64,000 nucleotides of DNA from NCBI GenBank assembly GCA_038064075.1, contig JBBTTU010000004.1, positions 647-64,646 on the forward strand, given 5' to 3'. Every line of letters starts with the position of its first letter. Position 1 is the stretch's first letter. Position numbers and translations under genes: made by a program. Under the pieces are notes generated by a model. It searched no databases and was not told the origin of the DNA. It saw only the letters and a program-made list of their open reading frames with translations. This document shows positions 5,888 through 13,706 of this stretch, piece by piece. The stretch comes from Patescibacteria group bacterium (GTDB taxonomy: Bacteria > Patescibacteriota > Minisyncoccia > HO2-45-28).

Positions 5888-6916
5888 ATGGGCAATAATT
5901 TTAATAATTTTGAAGAAGTTTCCAAAAGTTTATTAAAAGAATTTTCAGGGCGCGCTAAAGACGTTATTGAACGTCGTTTTGGCATTGGTTCAAAGTCAAA
6001 AAGACAAACCTTGGAAGCAATCGGCCAGTTTTACAAAATTACCCGCGAGCGAGTCCGCCAGATTGAAGACGCGGCTTTAAACAAGCTCCGTTTGAGCCAA
6101 TCTTTTGATTCATTAACTTCTCCTTTGTTTGAAATTTTCCAGAAAGAGCTTGAAAAAAGAGGCGGAGTTTGCCGCGAAGACCATTTTATTGCCGGGTTTG
6201 CGCATGGCGAACGGGATAAAAATTATGCCCTCTTTTTCCTTTTTTTAGGCAGTCCGTTTTCGCGATTAAGCGCCGACGGGTCATTTTACAGCCGATGGAC
6301 GATTAATAAAGAGAATGCTTCCAAAGTTGAAAGAGCCGTCGCCAGTTTTGCTGAAAGTTTGGGACAAGAGCCGTTAACTGAAAACGAAATACTTGACCGT
6401 TTCAACCGGCATGTTGCCGCGAGTCTCAACCATACATTAGAAAAATCAGCTCTGCTTTCGTGGCTCGGCATTTCCAAAGAGATTACCGTTAATCCTCTGG
6501 GTGAATGGGGACTCAATTCTTCGCTTCTGGTCCGTCCGCGCGGCATGCGGGATTTTGCCTATCTTGTTTTGAAAAAGCACGGATCGCCCCTCCATTTTCG
6601 CGAGGTTGCCAAAAAAATTGAAGATCTGGCCGGCCGGCGTTCCCATGTCCAGACGGTCCATAACGAACTTATCAAAGACGATCGCTTTATTCTGGTCGGC
6701 CGCGGACTTTACGCTCTTTCAGGCTGGGGCTATCAGCCCGGAACCATAAAAGACATAATCACCAATATTTTGAAAAATCACGGTCCGCTTTCAAAAGTCG
6801 AGCTGGTTCAAAAAGCTCTTCAGGAAAGGCATGTTAAAGAAAACACGGTGCTGATCAATCTTCAAAATAAAACTCATTTTAAGCGTCTTGACGACGGCCT
6901 CTATCATTTGGCCTGA
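5888..6916 (+). CDS. DNA-binding regulatory protein with a sigma-70 region-4 HTH N-terminal domain and a HARE-HTH-like C-terminal domain.
   Basis: 'AKDVIERRFGIGSKSKRQTLEAIGQFYKITRERVRQIEDAALNKLR' matches RpoD region 4.2. C-terminal 'VLKKHGSPLHFREVAKKIEDL' and 'ILKNHGPLSKVELVQKAL' resemble the HARE-HTH of the RNAP delta subunit. Confidence 0.55.
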   Translation: MGNNFNNFEEVSKSLLKEFSGRAKDVIERRFGIGSKSKRQTLEAIGQFYKITRERVRQIEDAALNKLRLSQSFDSLTSPLFEIFQKELEKRGGVCREDHFIAGFAHGERDKNYALFFLFLGSPFSRLSADGSFYSRWTINKENASKVERAVASFAESLGQEPLTENEILDRFNRHVAASLNHTLEKSALLSWLGISKEITVNPLGEWGLNSSLLVRPRGMRDFAYLVLKKHGSPLHFREVAKKIEDLAGRRSHVQTVHNELIKDDRFILVGRGLYALSGWGYQPGTIKDIITNILKNHGPLSKVELVQKALQERHVKENTVLINLQNKTHFKRLDDGLYHLA

Positions 6917-7002
6917 GGGAGTTGCCTGAAATTTTCAAGTTTCAGCCATAATTTTATTTATTGCTATTCCAAAATTTTGTGTAATTTGGCATAATATAAG
7001 CA

Positions 7003-8340
7003 ATGCCGCAATTTAAGGGTTTTTCTTTAACCGTTTTATGGAATTTTATTGCGCCGGCGCTTAATTTTATCGCCGATCTTTGGTGGTTGTGGCTTTTCAT
7101 CATTTCGGCGATACTGGCAAAAAATCTTTGGCAACATTTGCGGATTTCGCGTTTTAAAAACGACAACCGCTGGGTTCTTTTGGAAATTTTAATCCCGCGC
7201 GAAATCCGGAAATCGCCAAAGGCGATGGAGCAGATTTTAAATCAAATTTACAGCTTGAGAAATTCTCCCGAAAACTTCGTTGAAAAATATTTTGAGGGCG
7301 AAGTGACTCTTTGGTGGAGTCTGGAAGTCGCCAGTTTCGGCGGCGAGGTTCATTTTTTTATCCGGACGCCGGAAAAGTATAAAAATATCATAGAATCCAA
7401 CATTTATGCCAATTACAAAGACGCCGAAGTAGTTGAAGTTCAGGATTATGTCCTGCGTCTGCCGGAACGAACAACCGATTTATACAAAATGGGAATGGAT
7501 CTTTTCGGTTTGGAGCTGACTCTGGGGCGCGAGAGCGCCTATCCCATCAGAACCTATCCCCAGTTTGAAGCCATGGAAGAAGAAAAGGCTCTTGATCCGA
7601 TATCGGGCCTTATTGAAGTTTTAAGCAAACTGAAAAAAGAAGAACAGGTTTGGCTTCAGATTTTGATCAAGCCGGCCGATCCTTTGTGGAAAGAAAAGGG
7701 TTATAAATTAGTCAAAAAATTGCAGGAAAAAACCTTTTCCAAAGTTAGTATTTCAGAAGGAAAGTCGCTGGCTATCGGCCGGACGACTCCCGGTGAGGAA
7801 GACATCATAAAAAATATTGAATATAAACTGGCAAAGGCGGCTTTTGAAACTGTTATCCGTTATGTTTATTTCGCTCCGCGGTCTATTTTTAACAAACAAT
7901 TGCCTTACAGAGGAGTTCGGGGCTGTTTTGCCCAGTATTCGGCTCAGAACATGAATTATTTTGTTCCGAACATTGCGGTCCGAACCATGGTTTGGTGGGT
8001 TAAATTTCCGTTTTTCTTTTCCAAAAAAAGAGAAGAAGGGAGGAAGCAGCGCGTCTATCAGAATTATCGCTTGCGGCGAATGCCGGAAGAAATCGCGATC
8101 GGCAAAGTTTTAAACTCCCAGTTTTTTTATTTTGACAACAAGTCAAAGCCGGCAATATTTTCAAGCGAAGAGATCGCGACATTTTATCATTTGCCTTCTT
8201 TCCTGATTTTAACCGCGCCTTTCATCAAGCGGGTTGAAGCCAAACGGATGGGTCCGCCGGCCGGATTGCCTATTTTCGGCGAAGAGGAAGAAATTCCCGG
8301 GATTAAAATGCCGGAGGAACGCAAATCAGCCAAAAAATGA
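7003..8340 (+). CDS. Hypothetical membrane-anchored protein with two N-terminal TM helices and a ~370-aa soluble domain. It is the first gene of the T4CP-like ATPase module.
   Basis: N-terminal hydrophobic helices ('FSLTVLWNFIAPALNFIADLWWLWLFIISAILA'). I recognise no family. A possible extended -10 (TGGCATAAT, 6987-6995) lies upstream. The stop overlaps a downstream ATG in an ATGA arrangement. Confidence 0.5.
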   Translation: MPQFKGFSLTVLWNFIAPALNFIADLWWLWLFIISAILAKNLWQHLRISRFKNDNRWVLLEILIPREIRKSPKAMEQILNQIYSLRNSPENFVEKYFEGEVTLWWSLEVASFGGEVHFFIRTPEKYKNIIESNIYANYKDAEVVEVQDYVLRLPERTTDLYKMGMDLFGLELTLGRESAYPIRTYPQFEAMEEEKALDPISGLIEVLSKLKKEEQVWLQILIKPADPLWKEKGYKLVKKLQEKTFSKVSISEGKSLAIGRTTPGEEDIIKNIEYKLAKAAFETVIRYVYFAPRSIFNKQLPYRGVRGCFAQYSAQNMNYFVPNIAVRTMVWWVKFPFFFSKKREEGRKQRVYQNYRLRRMPEEIAIGKVLNSQFFYFDNKSKPAIFSSEEIATFYHLPSFLILTAPFIKRVEAKRMGPPAGLPIFGEEEEIPGIKMPEERKSAKK

Positions 8341-8359
8341 ATCAAGCCGCAAGTTCCAA

Positions 8360-8485
8360 GTGCCAAAATTGCCGGCAAAACTTCACGAAAACAATTCCTG
8401 CCCCAATGAATTTGAAACAACCTATTCACCGGACCGCAAAGAAATTGTTTATTGCGAACAGTGTTATCAGAGCGAGATTTTGTGA
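8360..8485 (+). CDS. Possible small zinc-ribbon ORF, or a frameshifted C-terminal extension of the upstream membrane protein.
   Basis: The +1 frame relative to the 7003 gene encodes 'CPNEFETTYSPDRKEIVYCEQC', homologous to 'CWICKKTASVPFKPDGQRPVYCSEC' at the C-terminus of the 10621 ATPase (shared PD..(R/K)x(I/P)VYCx(E/Q)C). The start codon is uncertain (GTG at 8360). The alternative frame also encodes a 58-aa CxxC ORF starting at 8337. Confidence 0.25.
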   Translation: MPKLPAKLHENNSCPNEFETTYSPDRKEIVYCEQCYQSEIL

Positions 8486-8531
8486 GAAACTGTGTTGGTT
8501 TAATTTATTTTAAATTGTTATTCTTAAAATA

Positions 8532-9098
8532 ATGCCCATAAATTTTAACGCGATTGGAAGCATGCTCGGGCCTTTTGGTTTTTTGGCAGATATTGGCTTC
8601 TGGCAAAATTTTTATGTAGTTTTGCGCCAGATTTTGATTGCGGGCGCCGGGGCGCTTTTTATTCTTTCAGTTTGGCTTTTGATTAAAATCTGGTCGCTCA
8701 AACTCCGTTTTTATATTTATGAAGGTTACAGGGCTTATCGCACTCCCGGCAGAGAAACCACTTTTGAAGAAGAACAAAGGCTTGCCAGCCGCAGGAAATG
8801 GGACGCTATCATCAAAAAAGTTGAATCGCGGGGAGCGGCCGGTTTCGGCATGGCTGTTATTGAAGCTGATATTTTAACCGAAGAAATAATGGGCCGGATG
8901 GGTTTTATCGGCAAAAATCTGGCGGAACGCCTGCGTTCGCTTGCGCCGGGCGAACTGGAAAGTGCCAATGACCTTTGGTCCGCCCACAAATTAAGAAATA
9001 AAATAGCCCACGAGCAGGAATTTCAGCCGTCCAAGGAAGAAACGGTTGAGGCCTTGGCGGCTTACAAAAAAGCCTTGCAAGATTTGGGCGCGATATAA
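8532..9098 (+). CDS. Small membrane protein with a C-terminal alpha-helical domain carrying a HEPN-like Rx4H motif.
   Basis: Two N-terminal hydrophobic helices. The C-terminal 'SAHKLRNKIAHEQEF' matches the HEPN/HepT(DUF86) Rx4HxY motif, with Q in place of Y. Confidence 0.45.
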   Translation: MPINFNAIGSMLGPFGFLADIGFWQNFYVVLRQILIAGAGALFILSVWLLIKIWSLKLRFYIYEGYRAYRTPGRETTFEEEQRLASRRKWDAIIKKVESRGAAGFGMAVIEADILTEEIMGRMGFIGKNLAERLRSLAPGELESANDLWSAHKLRNKIAHEQEFQPSKEETVEALAAYKKALQDLGAI

Positions 9099-9117
9099 AG
9101 ACATTAGAAAACTTAAC

Positions 9118-10587
9118 ATGCTAAGAGAAGGAAAAATTCAAATAATCAAATATGCTCCGCCTCCGCCGGAATTGCCGGTCTATAAATATGTTGATCCGCG
9201 CGAAACCGTCTTTTTCGGCCGGACCAATTATGTCGCCGGACTTGAAGAGAAAAGATTTATTTTCGGCATTAAAAGAAAAGACCGCCGGCGCCATATGTAT
9301 GTCGTCGGCAAAAGCGGCGTCGGAAAAAGCAAACTATTGGAAATGATGATCCGTCAGGATATCCGCTACGGCCACGGGCTTTGCTTGATTGATCCTCACG
9401 GCGACGTGATTGAGGAGATTTTGAAGTTCATTCCCGAAGAGCGCGCTCGCGATACGGTTATCATTGATCCTTCGGATATTGACTGGCCGGTTTCTTTTAA
9501 TCCTTTGCAAAATATCAATCCCGAACTGAAGCACCAAGTCGCCCAAGGTTTGATTGAAGTGATGGAAAAGCAGTTCGGCGCGAACTGGACGCCTCGTTTG
9601 GAACATGTTTTTCGTTTTACGGTGCTGGCGCTTCTGGATTTTCCGATGGCCACCATGCGCGGAATGATTTCAATGCTGACTGACCGGAGATACCGTCAGA
9701 AAGTCGTGGAGTTCATCGGCGATGAGATGGTCAAACGTTTCTGGGCGATAGAATTTGCCGACTGGTCGGAAAAATTTGACACCGAGGCCATTATTCCTTT
9801 GGTCAACAAGCTCGGCCAGTTTTTATCCAATCCTTATTTGCGCCATATTTTCGGCCAACGCGAAAATAAAATTGATTTGGAACATATAATGAACAGCCGT
9901 AAAATACTCCTGATCAACCTTTCCAAAGGGAAACTGGGCGAAGAAAATTCAAGCTTTTTCGGTTCAATATTCATCACCAAGATCAAGCAGGCCGGAATGG
10001 CCCGGGCGGCCGTGGCCGAGAGCGAACGCAAAGATTTTTATCTTTATGTTGATGAATTTCATAATTTGGTCACAACCACTTTTGAAAATTTATTTTCCGA
10101 AGCCAGAAAGTACGGCCTTAATATGATTGTGGCCCACCAGTATATGGGCCAGCTTTTGCCGCGGGTGCATGATACGGTTTTGGGCAATGTCGGCACCATT
10201 GTCGTTTTCAGGGTCGGAGGAGACGACGCCGCCAAACTGGAGAGCGAAATGACGCCGGTTTTTAAAGCCAAAGACATGATTAATCTCGGCATGCAGGAAT
10301 TCTACGTAAAAATGACCATTGACGGCGACACTTCCGATCCTTTCTCGGCTGAAACGCTCAAAGTCTTGCCAACGGCGCACCAATCGTTTAAAGAAGAAAT
10401 TATTGATTTTTGCCGCAAAAATTACGCCGCTCAAGCCCAAGAAGTGAAACGAAAAATTACTGAAGAGGAAACCGAACTTTTGGGCCTTGCTCCCGAAGAA
10501 GAAAAAAAAGAAGAAGCGTCTTCGGCGGTTTCTCAAGCGCCCGGCGAAAAATCGGAAAATTCTCAAAACTCCGAACCTCTTGTCTGA
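9118..10587 (+). CDS. Soluble VirD4/TraG/TrwB-type (type IV coupling-protein-like, FtsK/HerA superfamily) P-loop ATPase. NCBI-style name: type IV secretion system DNA-binding domain protein.
   Basis: Walker A 'HMYVVGKSGVGKSKLL', 'GLCLIDPHGDV', Walker B 'DFYLYVDEFHNL' and Q-motif 'IVAHQYMGQL' occur in canonical T4CP order. There is no TM anchor. The C-terminus is acidic. The start is chosen at the internal ATG at 9118 (MLREGK) to avoid overlapping the upstream gene. Confidence 0.7.
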   Translation: MLREGKIQIIKYAPPPPELPVYKYVDPRETVFFGRTNYVAGLEEKRFIFGIKRKDRRRHMYVVGKSGVGKSKLLEMMIRQDIRYGHGLCLIDPHGDVIEEILKFIPEERARDTVIIDPSDIDWPVSFNPLQNINPELKHQVAQGLIEVMEKQFGANWTPRLEHVFRFTVLALLDFPMATMRGMISMLTDRRYRQKVVEFIGDEMVKRFWAIEFADWSEKFDTEAIIPLVNKLGQFLSNPYLRHIFGQRENKIDLEHIMNSRKILLINLSKGKLGEENSSFFGSIFITKIKQAGMARAAVAESERKDFYLYVDEFHNLVTTTFENLFSEARKYGLNMIVAHQYMGQLLPRVHDTVLGNVGTIVVFRVGGDDAAKLESEMTPVFKAKDMINLGMQEFYVKMTIDGDTSDPFSAETLKVLPTAHQSFKEEIIDFCRKNYAAQAQEVKRKITEEETELLGLAPEEEKKEEASSAVSQAPGEKSENSQNSEPLV

Positions 10588-10620
10588 AATAAAATTTGCA
10601 GACATAATTTAAATAATCCC

Positions 10621-12564
10621 ATGGCCATTCAAAAAGAAAGAGTTTATTTTGCCAGAACAAATTTTAGAGGTCAGAATAAAATTTTCGGCATTAAATTGCC
10701 GGATCGCCGGCAGCATATGTATGTTGTCGGGAAAACCGGCACCGGCAAAACCAACCTGATCAAAAATATAGCCATTCAGGATATAAACTCCGGCCGGGGC
10801 CTCTGCGTTGTTGATCCTCACGGCGAGCTAGTTGAAGAACTTTTGGAAAAAATTCCGAAAGAACGCTCCAAAGACGTGATTTATTTCAATCCGGCCGACT
10901 CGGAACATCCTCTGGGTTTCAACGTCTTGGAAGTTCCCGATAAAAAATACAAGCATTTGATTGCGCAGGGCCTGATCGGAATTTTTACCAAAATCTGGGC
11001 CAATGTCTGGTCGGCCCGGATGGAGTATATTTTAAATAACTGCATTTTGGCCTTGATTGAAACGCCGGGCACCACGCTCTTGGGCATTCAGCGCATTTTG
11101 ACCGACAAAGATTACCGCCAGCGGATTTTAGCCAATGTAACCGACCCGGTCGTGCGCGCTTTTTGGATGAATGAATATGAAGTCTGGCAGGATCGCTTCC
11201 GCAACGAAGCCATTGTTCCGATTCAAAATAAAGTCGGCCAGTTCGTCGCGACATCTTTGATCCGAAACATTGTCGGCCAGGCCAAATCAAGCTTTGAAGT
11301 TTTTGAGTTGATGAACGAGGGCAAAATTCTTCTGGTCAATATTTCCAAAGGCCGGATTGGCGAGGAAAATTCAATGCTTTTGGGAGCCATGCTTATCACT
11401 AAAATTCAGCTGGCGGCCATGGAACGGGTCCGCATCCCCGAAAATGAAAGGCGCGATTTTTATCTTTATGTTGACGAGTTCCAGAATTTCGCCACCGAAT
11501 CGTTTGCTTCCATTCTTTCCGAAGCCAGAAAATACCGGCTTAATCTGATTATTTCGCATCAATACACCGGCCAGCTGATTAGCCAGACGACAACGACGAT
11601 CCGCGACGCCGTTTTCGGCAATGTCGGCACGATGATTTTTTTCAGAGTCGGAGCGACCGACGCCGAGTTTCTGGAAAAAGAAATCACGCCCGAATTCGTC
11701 ATAGACGACCTCGTCAATCTGCCCAATTACAATATTTATCTCAAATTAATGGTTGACGGCATATCAACCCGGCCTTTTTCGGCCGTTACCATACCGCCTT
11801 TGGCCACGACCGCCGATATGGCCGATCCGAAAATTATCGTTGATAATTCCCGAAAGCAATATGCCCGATCGGCAAACAAGGTTGAAGGAGATATCAAGCG
11901 CTGGAGTTCTTCTTTGCCGGGAACGACTGAAGCCGAAGAAGAATTTTTCACCGAAGGCGGATCCGCCTATGGCGGAAAAGTTAAAACCGGCGACAAATTT
12001 GAAAGTCCGTGCTGGATTTGCAAAAAAACCGCGTCAGTTCCTTTCAAGCCCGACGGCCAAAGGCCGGTCTATTGCTCGGAGTGTTTGAAAAAGATTGAAG
12101 CCGGCCAACTGCGGCCTTTGCGTCCGCTGCCGACGGCCGGAAAAGAGCGCGAAGAATTCGGCGGAGAACTCGGTGAATTGGGCATTGAGTTTAATTTGCC
12201 TCAAAATAAGGTAAAGACATTCTCAAAGCCGGGCTTCAAAGCTCCGCATCCGGAATTTTCGCCGAAAGCCCGGCCCGCGCCCGGAAAAATTATGCCGAAT
12301 ATCAGAGAGGGCGAATTGGTGGTCAAGGATGTTAAGCCAAAACGCGCGCTTTCTTTGCAAGATTTGAAGCCGCGGGCAGAAAAATCAAAACCAAAAGAAT
12401 CTAATTTGGATGAATTGCGCCGGGTTCTGAAAGAATCGCTTGCCAAAGAAGAAAAACCGATGGCCGAAACTCAAAAAAATCAGAATGCGGCGCCGTCTTC
12501 ACAAAAGGAGCCGTCTTCCAAATCAGGCGTGCTTAAACCCGGCGAGTCAATAAAATTTGAATAA
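10621..12564 (+). CDS. Paralogous soluble VirD4/TraG-type P-loop ATPase with a C-terminal CxxC...CxxC zinc ribbon and a long K/P/E-rich disordered tail.
   Basis: 'HMYVVGKTGTGKTNLI', 'GLCVVDPHGELV', 'DFYLYVDEFQNF', 'IISHQYTGQLI'. The core is collinear with the 9118 protein. Zinc ribbon 'CWICKKTASVPFKPDGQRPVYCSEC'. The tail is rich in K, P and E. Confidence 0.7.
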   Translation: MAIQKERVYFARTNFRGQNKIFGIKLPDRRQHMYVVGKTGTGKTNLIKNIAIQDINSGRGLCVVDPHGELVEELLEKIPKERSKDVIYFNPADSEHPLGFNVLEVPDKKYKHLIAQGLIGIFTKIWANVWSARMEYILNNCILALIETPGTTLLGIQRILTDKDYRQRILANVTDPVVRAFWMNEYEVWQDRFRNEAIVPIQNKVGQFVATSLIRNIVGQAKSSFEVFELMNEGKILLVNISKGRIGEENSMLLGAMLITKIQLAAMERVRIPENERRDFYLYVDEFQNFATESFASILSEARKYRLNLIISHQYTGQLISQTTTTIRDAVFGNVGTMIFFRVGATDAEFLEKEITPEFVIDDLVNLPNYNIYLKLMVDGISTRPFSAVTIPPLATTADMADPKIIVDNSRKQYARSANKVEGDIKRWSSSLPGTTEAEEEFFTEGGSAYGGKVKTGDKFESPCWICKKTASVPFKPDGQRPVYCSECLKKIEAGQLRPLRPLPTAGKEREEFGGELGELGIEFNLPQNKVKTFSKPGFKAPHPEFSPKARPAPGKIMPNIREGELVVKDVKPKRALSLQDLKPRAEKSKPKESNLDELRRVLKESLAKEEKPMAETQKNQNAAPSSQKEPSSKSGVLKPGESIKFE

Positions 12565-13706
12565 AGCTCAAATGTTTTTTGGAGTTGTTTTTCTTTTGAA
12601 AATTCTTTAAGCACTTTTTGGCGCAAGTTTTGAGCAAGTATCCGGCCTAACTCCGGATCTTTTTTTAATCTTAAAACTGCTTCAGTCAGTTTTTGGGGAT
12701 CGGCCGGCGGTATTAAAAGTCCGGTTTTTCCGTCTTCTATGATTTCAGGGATTCCGCCGACAGAGCTGGCAATAACCGGGATTCCGGCCAGACCCGCTTC
12801 AAGCACCGCGTAGGGCAGTCCTTCTTTCAGCGACGGAAACACGAATACGTCAAAAGCTTTGAGATAAGCCGCCGCCGGAAAAAGATCTCTTACTAAAATC
12901 ACGTGTCGGCCGGTTTTTTCATTTTCAATTTGTCGGCGAGTTTTTTGCCAGCCGCTGCCCCAAGCCGCGATTACGGTTTTTATTTTTTCGTCTTTTTTAG
13001 CCAAGACGCCGGCGGCCGGTACCAGATATTCGTAGCCTTTATTTTTGACAAATTCGCCGACGGTGCCGACAATAAAATCATCGGTTTCAAACCGCGCATT
13101 CGGCATTTTTTTCCGGATTTCGTTTTTAGCAAGAAACAAGATTTCGTTTTCGGAGATTCCGTTATGGATGGTCAATAATTTTTCAGGCCGGGCCAGTCCG
13201 GTTTGGACGGCAATTTGGCGGTCAAAGTTTGAAACGCAGATGACTTGATCGTAAAACCATAAAGTTATTTTGGAAAGAATCCGGATGAAGAAAATTTGCC
13301 AGCGCGGCCTATCTTCCAGAAAACTCCAGCCGTGGACCGTAAATATTGTCCGCAGTTTTTTTCGGGAAAGCATTTTATAAATAAACGCGGCCGGGCCGGC
13401 AATGCCGGCGGCTTGGGGGCTTGAAGAATGAAGAATATCGGGACGGAAAGAAAAAAGAATTTTAAGCGTTTTTAAAAAAACCGCAAATGCCCCCAAAGGC
13501 CCCATTTCGCGCTTAAGTCCGCCAAGCGAAATAAAAGGTATTGACGCTTCTTGCAGGCGGCCGGCCAGAGGTCCGCGGCCGCCACCGGCCACCGCGGCGT
13601 CGTATCCCTTCTTTTGGGCGCAAGCGGCGAGGTCATAGACATGTTTTCCGGCTCCTCCCCAGACCGACTTGGTGATAAGGTATAAAATTTTAGCGCGATT
13701 GACCAT
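12480..13706 (-). CDS. Glycosyltransferase family 4 (GT-B, Glycos_transf_1).
   Basis: 'FVFPSLKEGLPYAVLEAGLAGIPVIASSVGGIPEIIEDGKTGLL' is the GT4 EX7E region. Its 3' end overlaps the convergent 10621 gene by 85 nt. Confidence 0.75.
   Translation of the reverse strand: MVNRAKILYLITKSVWGGAGKHVYDLAACAQKKGYDAAVAGGGRGPLAGRLQEASIPFISLGGLKREMGPLGAFAVFLKTLKILFSFRPDILHSSSPQAAGIAGPAAFIYKMLSRKKLRTIFTVHGWSFLEDRPRWQIFFIRILSKITLWFYDQVICVSNFDRQIAVQTGLARPEKLLTIHNGISENEILFLAKNEIRKKMPNARFETDDFIVGTVGEFVKNKGYEYLVPAAGVLAKKDEKIKTVIAAWGSGWQKTRRQIENEKTGRHVILVRDLFPAAAYLKAFDVFVFPSLKEGLPYAVLEAGLAGIPVIASSVGGIPEIIEDGKTGLLIPPADPQKLTEAVLRLKKDPELGRILAQNLRQKVLKEFSKEKQLQKTFELYSNFIDSPGLSTPDLEDGSFCEDGAAF

Follow-up and report, generated by a model that had tools for sequence, protein, structure and literature searches.

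Free-standing small CxxC-x17-CxxC zinc-binding proteins are known from Methanosarcina mazei (PMC12704099), and the same type of ribbon is described by the domain models PF23477 (zf_Tbcl_2) and TIGR04272. Two overlapping reading frames with homology on both sides are typical of programmed frameshifting, such as the -1 type of dnaX or IS elements and the +1 type of prfB. In the deletion pseudogenes of reduced genomes the gene body is lost and short terminal stubs are left between intact neighbours. Each of these systems can be compared with a short region of a Patescibacteria group bacterium (contig JBBTTU010000004.1), of which a stretch of 64,000 nucleotides was analysed, which we refer to as the window. 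Directly downstream of a gene for a DUF8128 membrane protein, 149 nt and two reading frames lie between the start and the stop of a stub (8337-8485). We consider it very probable that this stub is a deletion pseudogene, in which the 5′ and 3′ ends of a lost zinc-ribbon gene of about 580 codons are joined. This reading is preferred because both ends match one family, the synteny is shared, the middle of the gene is absent and the junction is reproducible. Compared with other deletion pseudogenes of reduced genomes, the stub would be unusual only in that both of its ends happen to carry half a zinc-binding motif, which mimics a frameshifted mini-ribbon.

The DUF8128 (PF26449) gene (7003-8340, + strand; 445 aa) lies outside the remnant and is intact. 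Its product is 100% identical to a protein of one Patescibacteria MAG and ends with ...EERKSAKK, the last two lysine codons being an A6 run (8332-8337), and the stop codon TGA (8338-8340) is located within an ATGA (8337-8340). The +1 frame relative to this gene is open from 8234 to 8485 and crosses the gene end. The initial annotation, made from the DNA sequence without database searches, described the gene end, the A6 run, the ATGA, the +1 frame and the 58-aa ORF starting at the ATG, and all of these are present. One of its proposals was that the membrane protein had, or still has, a zinc ribbon at its C-terminus and that a sequencing error or an indel within the A6 run shifted this ribbon out of the frame. 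The open +1 frame across the gene end and the homopolymer at the frame boundary would agree with that. However, the ribbon domain PF23477 is absent in all 119 other DUF8128 homologues listed among the best 120, which have a length of 388-489 aa and a Pfam content of PF26449 alone or none. An alignment of 32 sequences revealed the shared C-terminal pattern ...GPPAGLPIFGEEEE.PG.K....K-rich tail, with the K/E-rich tail of the 7003 protein and its homologues ending at the same position; 32 of 32 sequences end at or before this common tail, the exceptions being short low-complexity extensions. No orthologue with an in-frame ribbon after GPPAGLPIFGEEE...K-rich tail was found among the 119 others listed and the 32 aligned. 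Moreover, the stretch of the +1 frame from 8340 to 8383 (NESSRKFQVPKL) has no homology, neither with the family profile described below nor in residue alignments, the A6 run is the same in four assemblies, and in the relatives the motif ends a separate gene. The comparison of orthologous loci, which had been suggested together with the proposal, refuted it: the ribbon is fused to DUF8128 in none of these homologues, but belongs to a separate gene downstream, and the probability of a disrupted ribbon tail is practically negligible. The DUF8128 gene itself is complete and has a normal end.

Downstream of this gene, the +1 frame encodes ...KLHENNSCPNEFETTYSPDRKEIVYCEQCYQSEIL followed by a stop codon (8483-8485), with a GTG-initiated ORF of 41 aa at 8360-8485, whereas the frame of the ATG at 8337 contains a 58-aa ORF (8337-8513, + strand) with the sequence MNQAASSKCQNCRQNFTKTIPAP...RFCEKLCWFNLF, which includes the peptide NFTKTIPAPMNLK. 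The +1 frame reads NNSC-x17-CEQC, with a CQNC 29 nt upstream that belongs to the other frame; two CxxC knuckles 17 residues apart in one frame are not present in the stub. The peptide of the +1 frame had been noticed for its likeness to the CxxC-x17-CxxC ribbon (12004-12084, + strand) at the C-terminal end of the TrwB/VirD4-like ATPase encoded from 10621. This ATPase scores 41.7 bits on PF23477 as well as 41.7 bits on TIGR04272, both above the cut-off (residues 460-491; positions 4-35 of the PF23477 model). When the +1-frame peptide is aligned locally to the ATPase, the best match is located exactly on the ribbon residues 466-488 (12016-12084), and in the stretch originally highlighted 6 of 13 residues are identical. 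The proposed check for a chance match gave a Smith-Waterman score of 47, a value that one of 2000 shuffled peptides and one of 647 random short-ORF 41-mers taken from the window also reached; the match is above chance but weak. The remnant peptides have only 32-33% identity to the ATPase ribbon. The +1-frame peptide stays under both cut-offs, with 18.1-19.8 bits on PF23477 (cut-off 27; E 6e-4 to 3e-3) and 16.2 bits on TIGR04272 (NCBIfam; cut-off 36). It aligns to positions 10-35 of the 37 positions of PF23477, whereby the first knuckle is missing. With this domain the +1 frame shares the second CxxC, the 17-residue spacer to the Cys and the xPDxxxxVYC core, whereas in the subtype found in the large protein described below the first CxxC is replaced by HxHGxxxC. 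The supposed homology to the ATPase ribbon is therefore upheld as a relationship on the level of the domain class, but not as the closest one: the ATPase ribbon is only distantly related to the remnant, which did not originate from it.

The closer relatives are large cysteine-rich zinc-ribbon proteins of Patescibacteria/Parcubacteria with about 565-600 aa. They were found by tblastn in a set of 160 related loci with DUF8128, taken from collections of genomes and metagenomes (loci are numbered with an L), and a family profile with a length of 586 positions was built from nine full-length members. Examples of full-length genes are located at 5249-7039 in L023, 2171-3976 in L144, 4782-6578 in L156 and 2654-4357 in L007, and the gene of this protein lies downstream of DUF8128 in the same orientation, e.g., in L023, L156, L144, L066, L129, L101, and L093. 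The family has the N-terminus MNxETKxCQNCKQxF(T)IEPEDFxFYxKIKVP and the C-terminus HxHGxxxCPNEFETTYxPDRxEIVYCEQCYQxEVV, directly followed by the stop codon. In Pfam, full-length members give a weak N-terminal match to PF13451 (zf_Tbcl), their C-terminal ribbon is of the PF23477 type, and Pfam and NCBIfam scans, which gave only weak zinc-finger hits at the termini, assign the central ~450 residues to none of the curated families.

The match of the +1 frame to the family profile has 52.9 bits (E 3.3e-15) and covers positions 545-585 of 586, and the C-terminal family motif HxHGxxxCPNEFETxYxPxRxEIVYCExCYxxEVV with the subsequent stop is present. Its peptide is 68-79% identical to the C-termini of the large proteins by tblastn (L023, L156, L099, L144, L038, L066, and others), and all 20 residues of CPNEFETTYSPDRKEIVYCE recur unchanged in P0121, P0124, and P0126, which are C-terminal fragments of this family from a database search with the joined ends. 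The last 33 codons and the stop of a large zinc-ribbon gene (HENNSCPNEFETTYSPDRKEIVYCEQCYQSEIL) are thus retained as a 3′ remnant at 8384-8485 (+ strand), in a frame that is +1 relative to DUF8128 and -1 relative to the 5′ remnant. The general claim of the initial annotation that the +1 frame "is or was translated" was right, and the word "pseudogenised" in its title is fitting. The 5′ remnant (8337-8387, + strand) comprises the start codon and the first 17 codons (MNQAASSKCQNCRQNFT), with the ATG overlapping the DUF8128 stop. It aligns with the N-terminus MGPETKVCQHCKQEFTIEP of L168, with MNQRESRKCQNCRQEF of L072 (75% identity over 16 aa) and with MNQETKICQNCKQNF of L046/L081. Searching six-frame segments of the window, the ATG frame matches profile positions 5-16 with 6.7 bits (E 0.34), which is weak taken alone, and the match is short (17 aa). 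The matches of the ATG frame and of the +1 frame are the top two of the 64-kb window for this profile and adjoin each other, and profile positions 17-544 have no match anywhere in the 64-kb window. In the context of its position, of the ATG and of the adjoining strong C-terminal match, and only there, the N-terminal match is convincing. The initial annotation had not recognised the ATG-frame ORF (CQNC...) as the opposite end of the same large gene. Compared with the large family, the window has the first 17 and the last 33 codons, the native start position, the native stop, and the gene order in common, but it has lost ~530 internal codons, and its two ends are no longer read in one frame.

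The gene order points to the same family. In L168, the closest relative with a DUF8128 protein of 74% identity, the large gene begins with MGPETKVCQHCKQEFTIEP 7 nt after the DUF8128 stop, and in L007, L008, L009, and L089 (DUF8128 65-68% identical) it is located 3-54 nt past the DUF8128 stop. L007 has the order sigma70_r4/HARE-HTH, DUF8128, large gene (567 aa), a 189-aa gene and a TrwB-like ATPase. The genes of the window follow each other likewise, except that the 149-nt stub stands in the place of the large gene. The downstream border of the slot is formed by the next cluster gene (8532-9098, + strand; 188 aa, or 178 aa from 8562), whose product has 54% identity to that of the 189-aa gene behind the full-length large gene of L007 and 57% to that of a 173-aa gene of L004. 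Furthermore, the first TrwB-like ATPase of the window has 80-84% identity to its counterparts in L007/L004 (80% to L007). The nearest full-length C-termini come from loci in which DUF8128 is only ~37-47% identical, whereas L007 and L013, which have the closest DUF8128 together with a complete large gene, carry a different C-terminal subtype with 37-52% identity. Therefore, the lost gene may be a different paralogue from that in L007 and L013.

Comparing the residues and codons with those of full-length relatives, the ATG-frame homology ends after ...CQNCRQNFT, thus at TTC ACG (F-T, 8382-8387), and the +1-frame homology begins at the H of HENNSCPNEF, the codon CAC at 8384-8386. The deletion junction is accordingly placed at TTCACG (8382-8387). 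Since the relatives have ..TTC ACN ATH GAR.. at the 5′ site and ..CAY TTY CAC.. at the 3′ site, a microhomology of 3-6 nt (TTCAC(G)) at the junction is plausible, as judged from these relatives. The likely course of events would start from an ancestor with the large zinc-ribbon gene directly downstream of DUF8128, as in related Patescibacteria. An internal deletion of about 1.6 kb would then have removed ~530 codons, approximately codons 18 to 550 (the exact size being an estimate), and joined the first 17 codons out of frame to the last 33 codons and the stop, a short repeat probably being the site of slippage or of illegitimate recombination. The N-terminal CxxC knuckle would thereby have remained in the ATG frame (ATG at 8337) and the C-terminal half of the ribbon in the other frame, and the ATGA-coupled start would yield at most a nonsense peptide of 58 aa. 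The event was presumably recent. An imperfect tandem duplication of ~29 nt within a 39-aa mini-ribbon ORF was also considered for the origin of the two halves and rejected: counted by eye, the alleged copies agree in just 10 of 24 nt, and the related loci show the two halves to be opposite ends of a single large gene.

The same junction could in principle be an artefact of the assembly, by which a mis-join skipped ~1.6 kb of a gene that is really intact. All data are metagenome assemblies of modest coverage (7.6x for the ENA contig), the family is rich in cysteine repeats, and tandem paralogues of it are present in other genomes, all of which would favor a mis-join. However, positions 8290-8540 are identical in four assemblies, namely ERZ1292643 (ENA) and ERR3858113, ERR3858114, and ERR3858115 (Logan), which originate from different sequencing runs and different assemblers (two pipelines), all from one groundwater/aquifer site, and the A6 run is likewise identical in them. 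A possible microhomology of ≤6 nt is also far below the k-mer sizes of assemblers. Among the contigs with an identical DUF8128 protein and an identical downstream 178-aa protein only the deleted form was present, and no contig with identical flanking genes and the full gene was found. An artefact is hence extremely unlikely, and an intact allele may co-exist at the same aquifer site.

The two overlapping frames with homology on both sides also resemble programmed frameshifting of the dnaX, IS-element or prfB type, but the stub lacks a slippery sequence and a stimulatory structure, and its arrangement is not conserved. If ribosomes were programmed to slip by -1 within 8373-8400, and thereby to pass from the ATG frame to the +1 frame, the product would be a mini zinc-ribbon of ~49 aa that is ATGA-coupled to DUF8128, with the hypothetical sequence MNQAASSKCQNCRQNFTKNNSCPNEF...CEQCYQSEIL, including the peptide NFTKNNSCPNEF. 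Both frames are open over the junction, the two halves together provide CxxC + CxxC, and a free-standing protein of this kind would have its counterpart in the small proteins of M. mazei (PMC12704099). Moreover, an artificial in-frame fusion lacking 29 nt reaches 26.2 bits on PF23477, close to the cut-off of 27. However, this CxxC-x17-CxxC is a coincidence that arises when opposite halves of a ribbon are joined after excision of the 29 nt. The real product would be CxxC-x27-CxxC, which gives 17.6 bits on PF23477 with the first knuckle unaligned and thus does not surpass the +1 frame taken alone. Within 8373-8400 (CGG CAA AAC TTC ACG AAA ACA ATT CCT) there is no in-register X XXY YYZ heptamer, and the longest A run of 4 is too short for transcriptional slippage. 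The RNA downstream has a minimum free energy of -12.2 kcal/mol (z -0.42), which is no better than that of shuffled sequences, and there is no Rfam match. Furthermore, no relative has the two-frame arrangement, having one long ORF instead. A recoding signal at this site has thus only a minimal probability. The initial annotation had suggested programmed +1 frameshifting out of the membrane-protein gene, and this fails for similar reasons, as the +1 frame has no homology upstream of 8384, neither a slippery site nor an RNA structure (z -0.42) is found, and the motif in the relatives is the end of a separate long ORF.

It could also be assumed that one of the ORFs was co-opted as a micro-protein after the deletion, being independently expressed either as the 58-aa ORF (8337-8513) or as the GTG-initiated 41-aa ORF (8360-8485), which had been proposed before as an independent protein. 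In the 58-aa ORF the native start is preserved, as is the overlap with DUF8128 at ATGA, so that some translation of it is probable. In the 41-aa ORF the half ribbon is undamaged, with neither a stop nor an obviously disruptive change. However, the 58-aa ORF is a chimera of 17 genuine codons and 41 codons that are read out of frame through the 3′ remnant and beyond, it has no Pfam match even at E ≤ 10, and past residue 17 there is no homology in the alignment with full-length relatives. The 41-aa peptide consists of 8 unrelated codons and the last 33 codons of a gene of ~580 codons, it lacks the first metal-binding knuckle, and its scores are below the cut-offs (19.8 bits vs. 27, and 16.2 vs. 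36). In contrast to the small zinc proteins of M. mazei (PMC12704099), the stub has the defining features of the domain in no single frame. A database search with the joined 50-aa peptide revealed only seven short proteins. Each of them is a C-terminal piece of the large protein, encoded on a contig that is short, low in coverage or frame-broken; the two that were checked in their context are frame-broken or 0.48x-coverage copies. As all short matches are fragments of the large protein, there is no micro-protein family to which the stub could belong. A recent deletion explains the intact half ribbon equally well, and a scan for promoters and terminators in 8340-8532 gave nothing informative. 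Taken together, a co-opted and independently expressed micro-protein is very unlikely. That the translated stub has been kept as a new zinc-binding micro-protein, be it as the 58-aa chimera or as the CQNC...C-x17-CEQC product of an occasional -1 slip, is judged equally improbable. We assume that the stub, as a deletion pseudogene, has no function.

The decay of the large gene is not restricted to the window. The gene starts within 700 nt of the DUF8128 end in 28 loci and 0.7-2.9 kb downstream of it in 40 loci; in 86 loci it was not seen in the fetched sequence, some of these contigs ending early, and in 10 loci the contig ends within 300 nt of DUF8128, which makes the large gene not assessable. 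In the complete Niyogibacteria genome CP066691 no large gene is present between DUF8128 and the following 173-aa gene. L038 harbors an independent remnant of an internal deletion that retains only the model positions 1-125 and 533-586, and the copies of the large gene in L172 and in L018/L095 are broken by frame changes. Therefore, the DUF8128/TrwB-like ATPase cluster can do without the large zinc-ribbon gene, an accessory that decays repeatedly. In the literature on DUF8128 (PF26449) and zf_Tbcl we found nothing on this cluster. For the annotation of the genome it follows that 8337-8485 should be designated a probable pseudogene remnant, rather than a recoding site, an extended DUF8128 gene or a small zinc-finger gene. 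The decay of the large gene may furthermore serve as a small datum on which genes form the core of the uncharacterised DUF8128/TrwB-like ATPase cluster, which is conserved in Parcubacteria-type Patescibacteria.

The large zinc-ribbon gene, of which the window retains only a deletion stub, is damaged in other genomes as well. In L038 (4492-5171, CAYJWH010000020), one of the related DUF8128 loci fetched for comparison, a remnant of the gene covers positions 1-125 of the 586-position profile of full-length proteins across three frames and then continues directly with positions 533-586, which is an internal deletion independent of that in the window, in the same gene of a different genome. Further copies in L172 (1849-3749), a Kuenenbacteria MAG, and in L018/L095 (4422-5961), Parcubacteria GW2011_GWA2_45_30, are split by frame changes into 3-5 pieces each, and are either more pseudogenes or the product of faulty assembly. 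Database entries for 83-aa "proteins" beginning MNLPLP... come from genes called on pieces of such frame-broken copies. Many loci (L011, L066, L081, L085, L093, L101, and L156) carry a second, tandem paralogue downstream of the first, with matches about 6.1-7.3 kb into each locus.

The large proteins also differ at their C-terminal ribbon. The "CPNEF" subtype has HxHGxxxC in place of the first CxxC knuckle, as found at the C-termini in L023, L156, L144, L066, L129, L101, and L038 and at window 8384-8401, whereas the L007/L013 subtype retains CxxC. This difference suggests a His/Cys ligand swap inside one family.

The stub lies in a gene cluster (window 5888-12564, + strand) that is uncharacterised as far as could be found. 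It encodes, in this order, a sigma70_r4/HARE-HTH protein, the DUF8128 membrane protein, the large zinc-ribbon protein (here the stub), a ~180-aa protein that belongs to no family, and a pair of TrwB/VirD4-like coupling-protein ATPases. The C-terminal end of the second ATPase (gene 10621) carries a CxxC-x17-CxxC ribbon and an extended K/E/P-rich tail. For the first ATPase, the longest ORF begins at TTG 9046, which would give a 53-nt overlap with the 188-aa gene (8532-9098, +); public gene calls place the start of this ATPase at ATG 9118 instead (489 aa). The second ATPase gene (+) is convergent with a glycosyltransferase gene (12480-13706, - strand), their 3' ends overlapping by 85 nt (12480-12564). 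L004 and L007 show this gene order too, and the cluster is conserved in Parcubacteria-type Patescibacteria.
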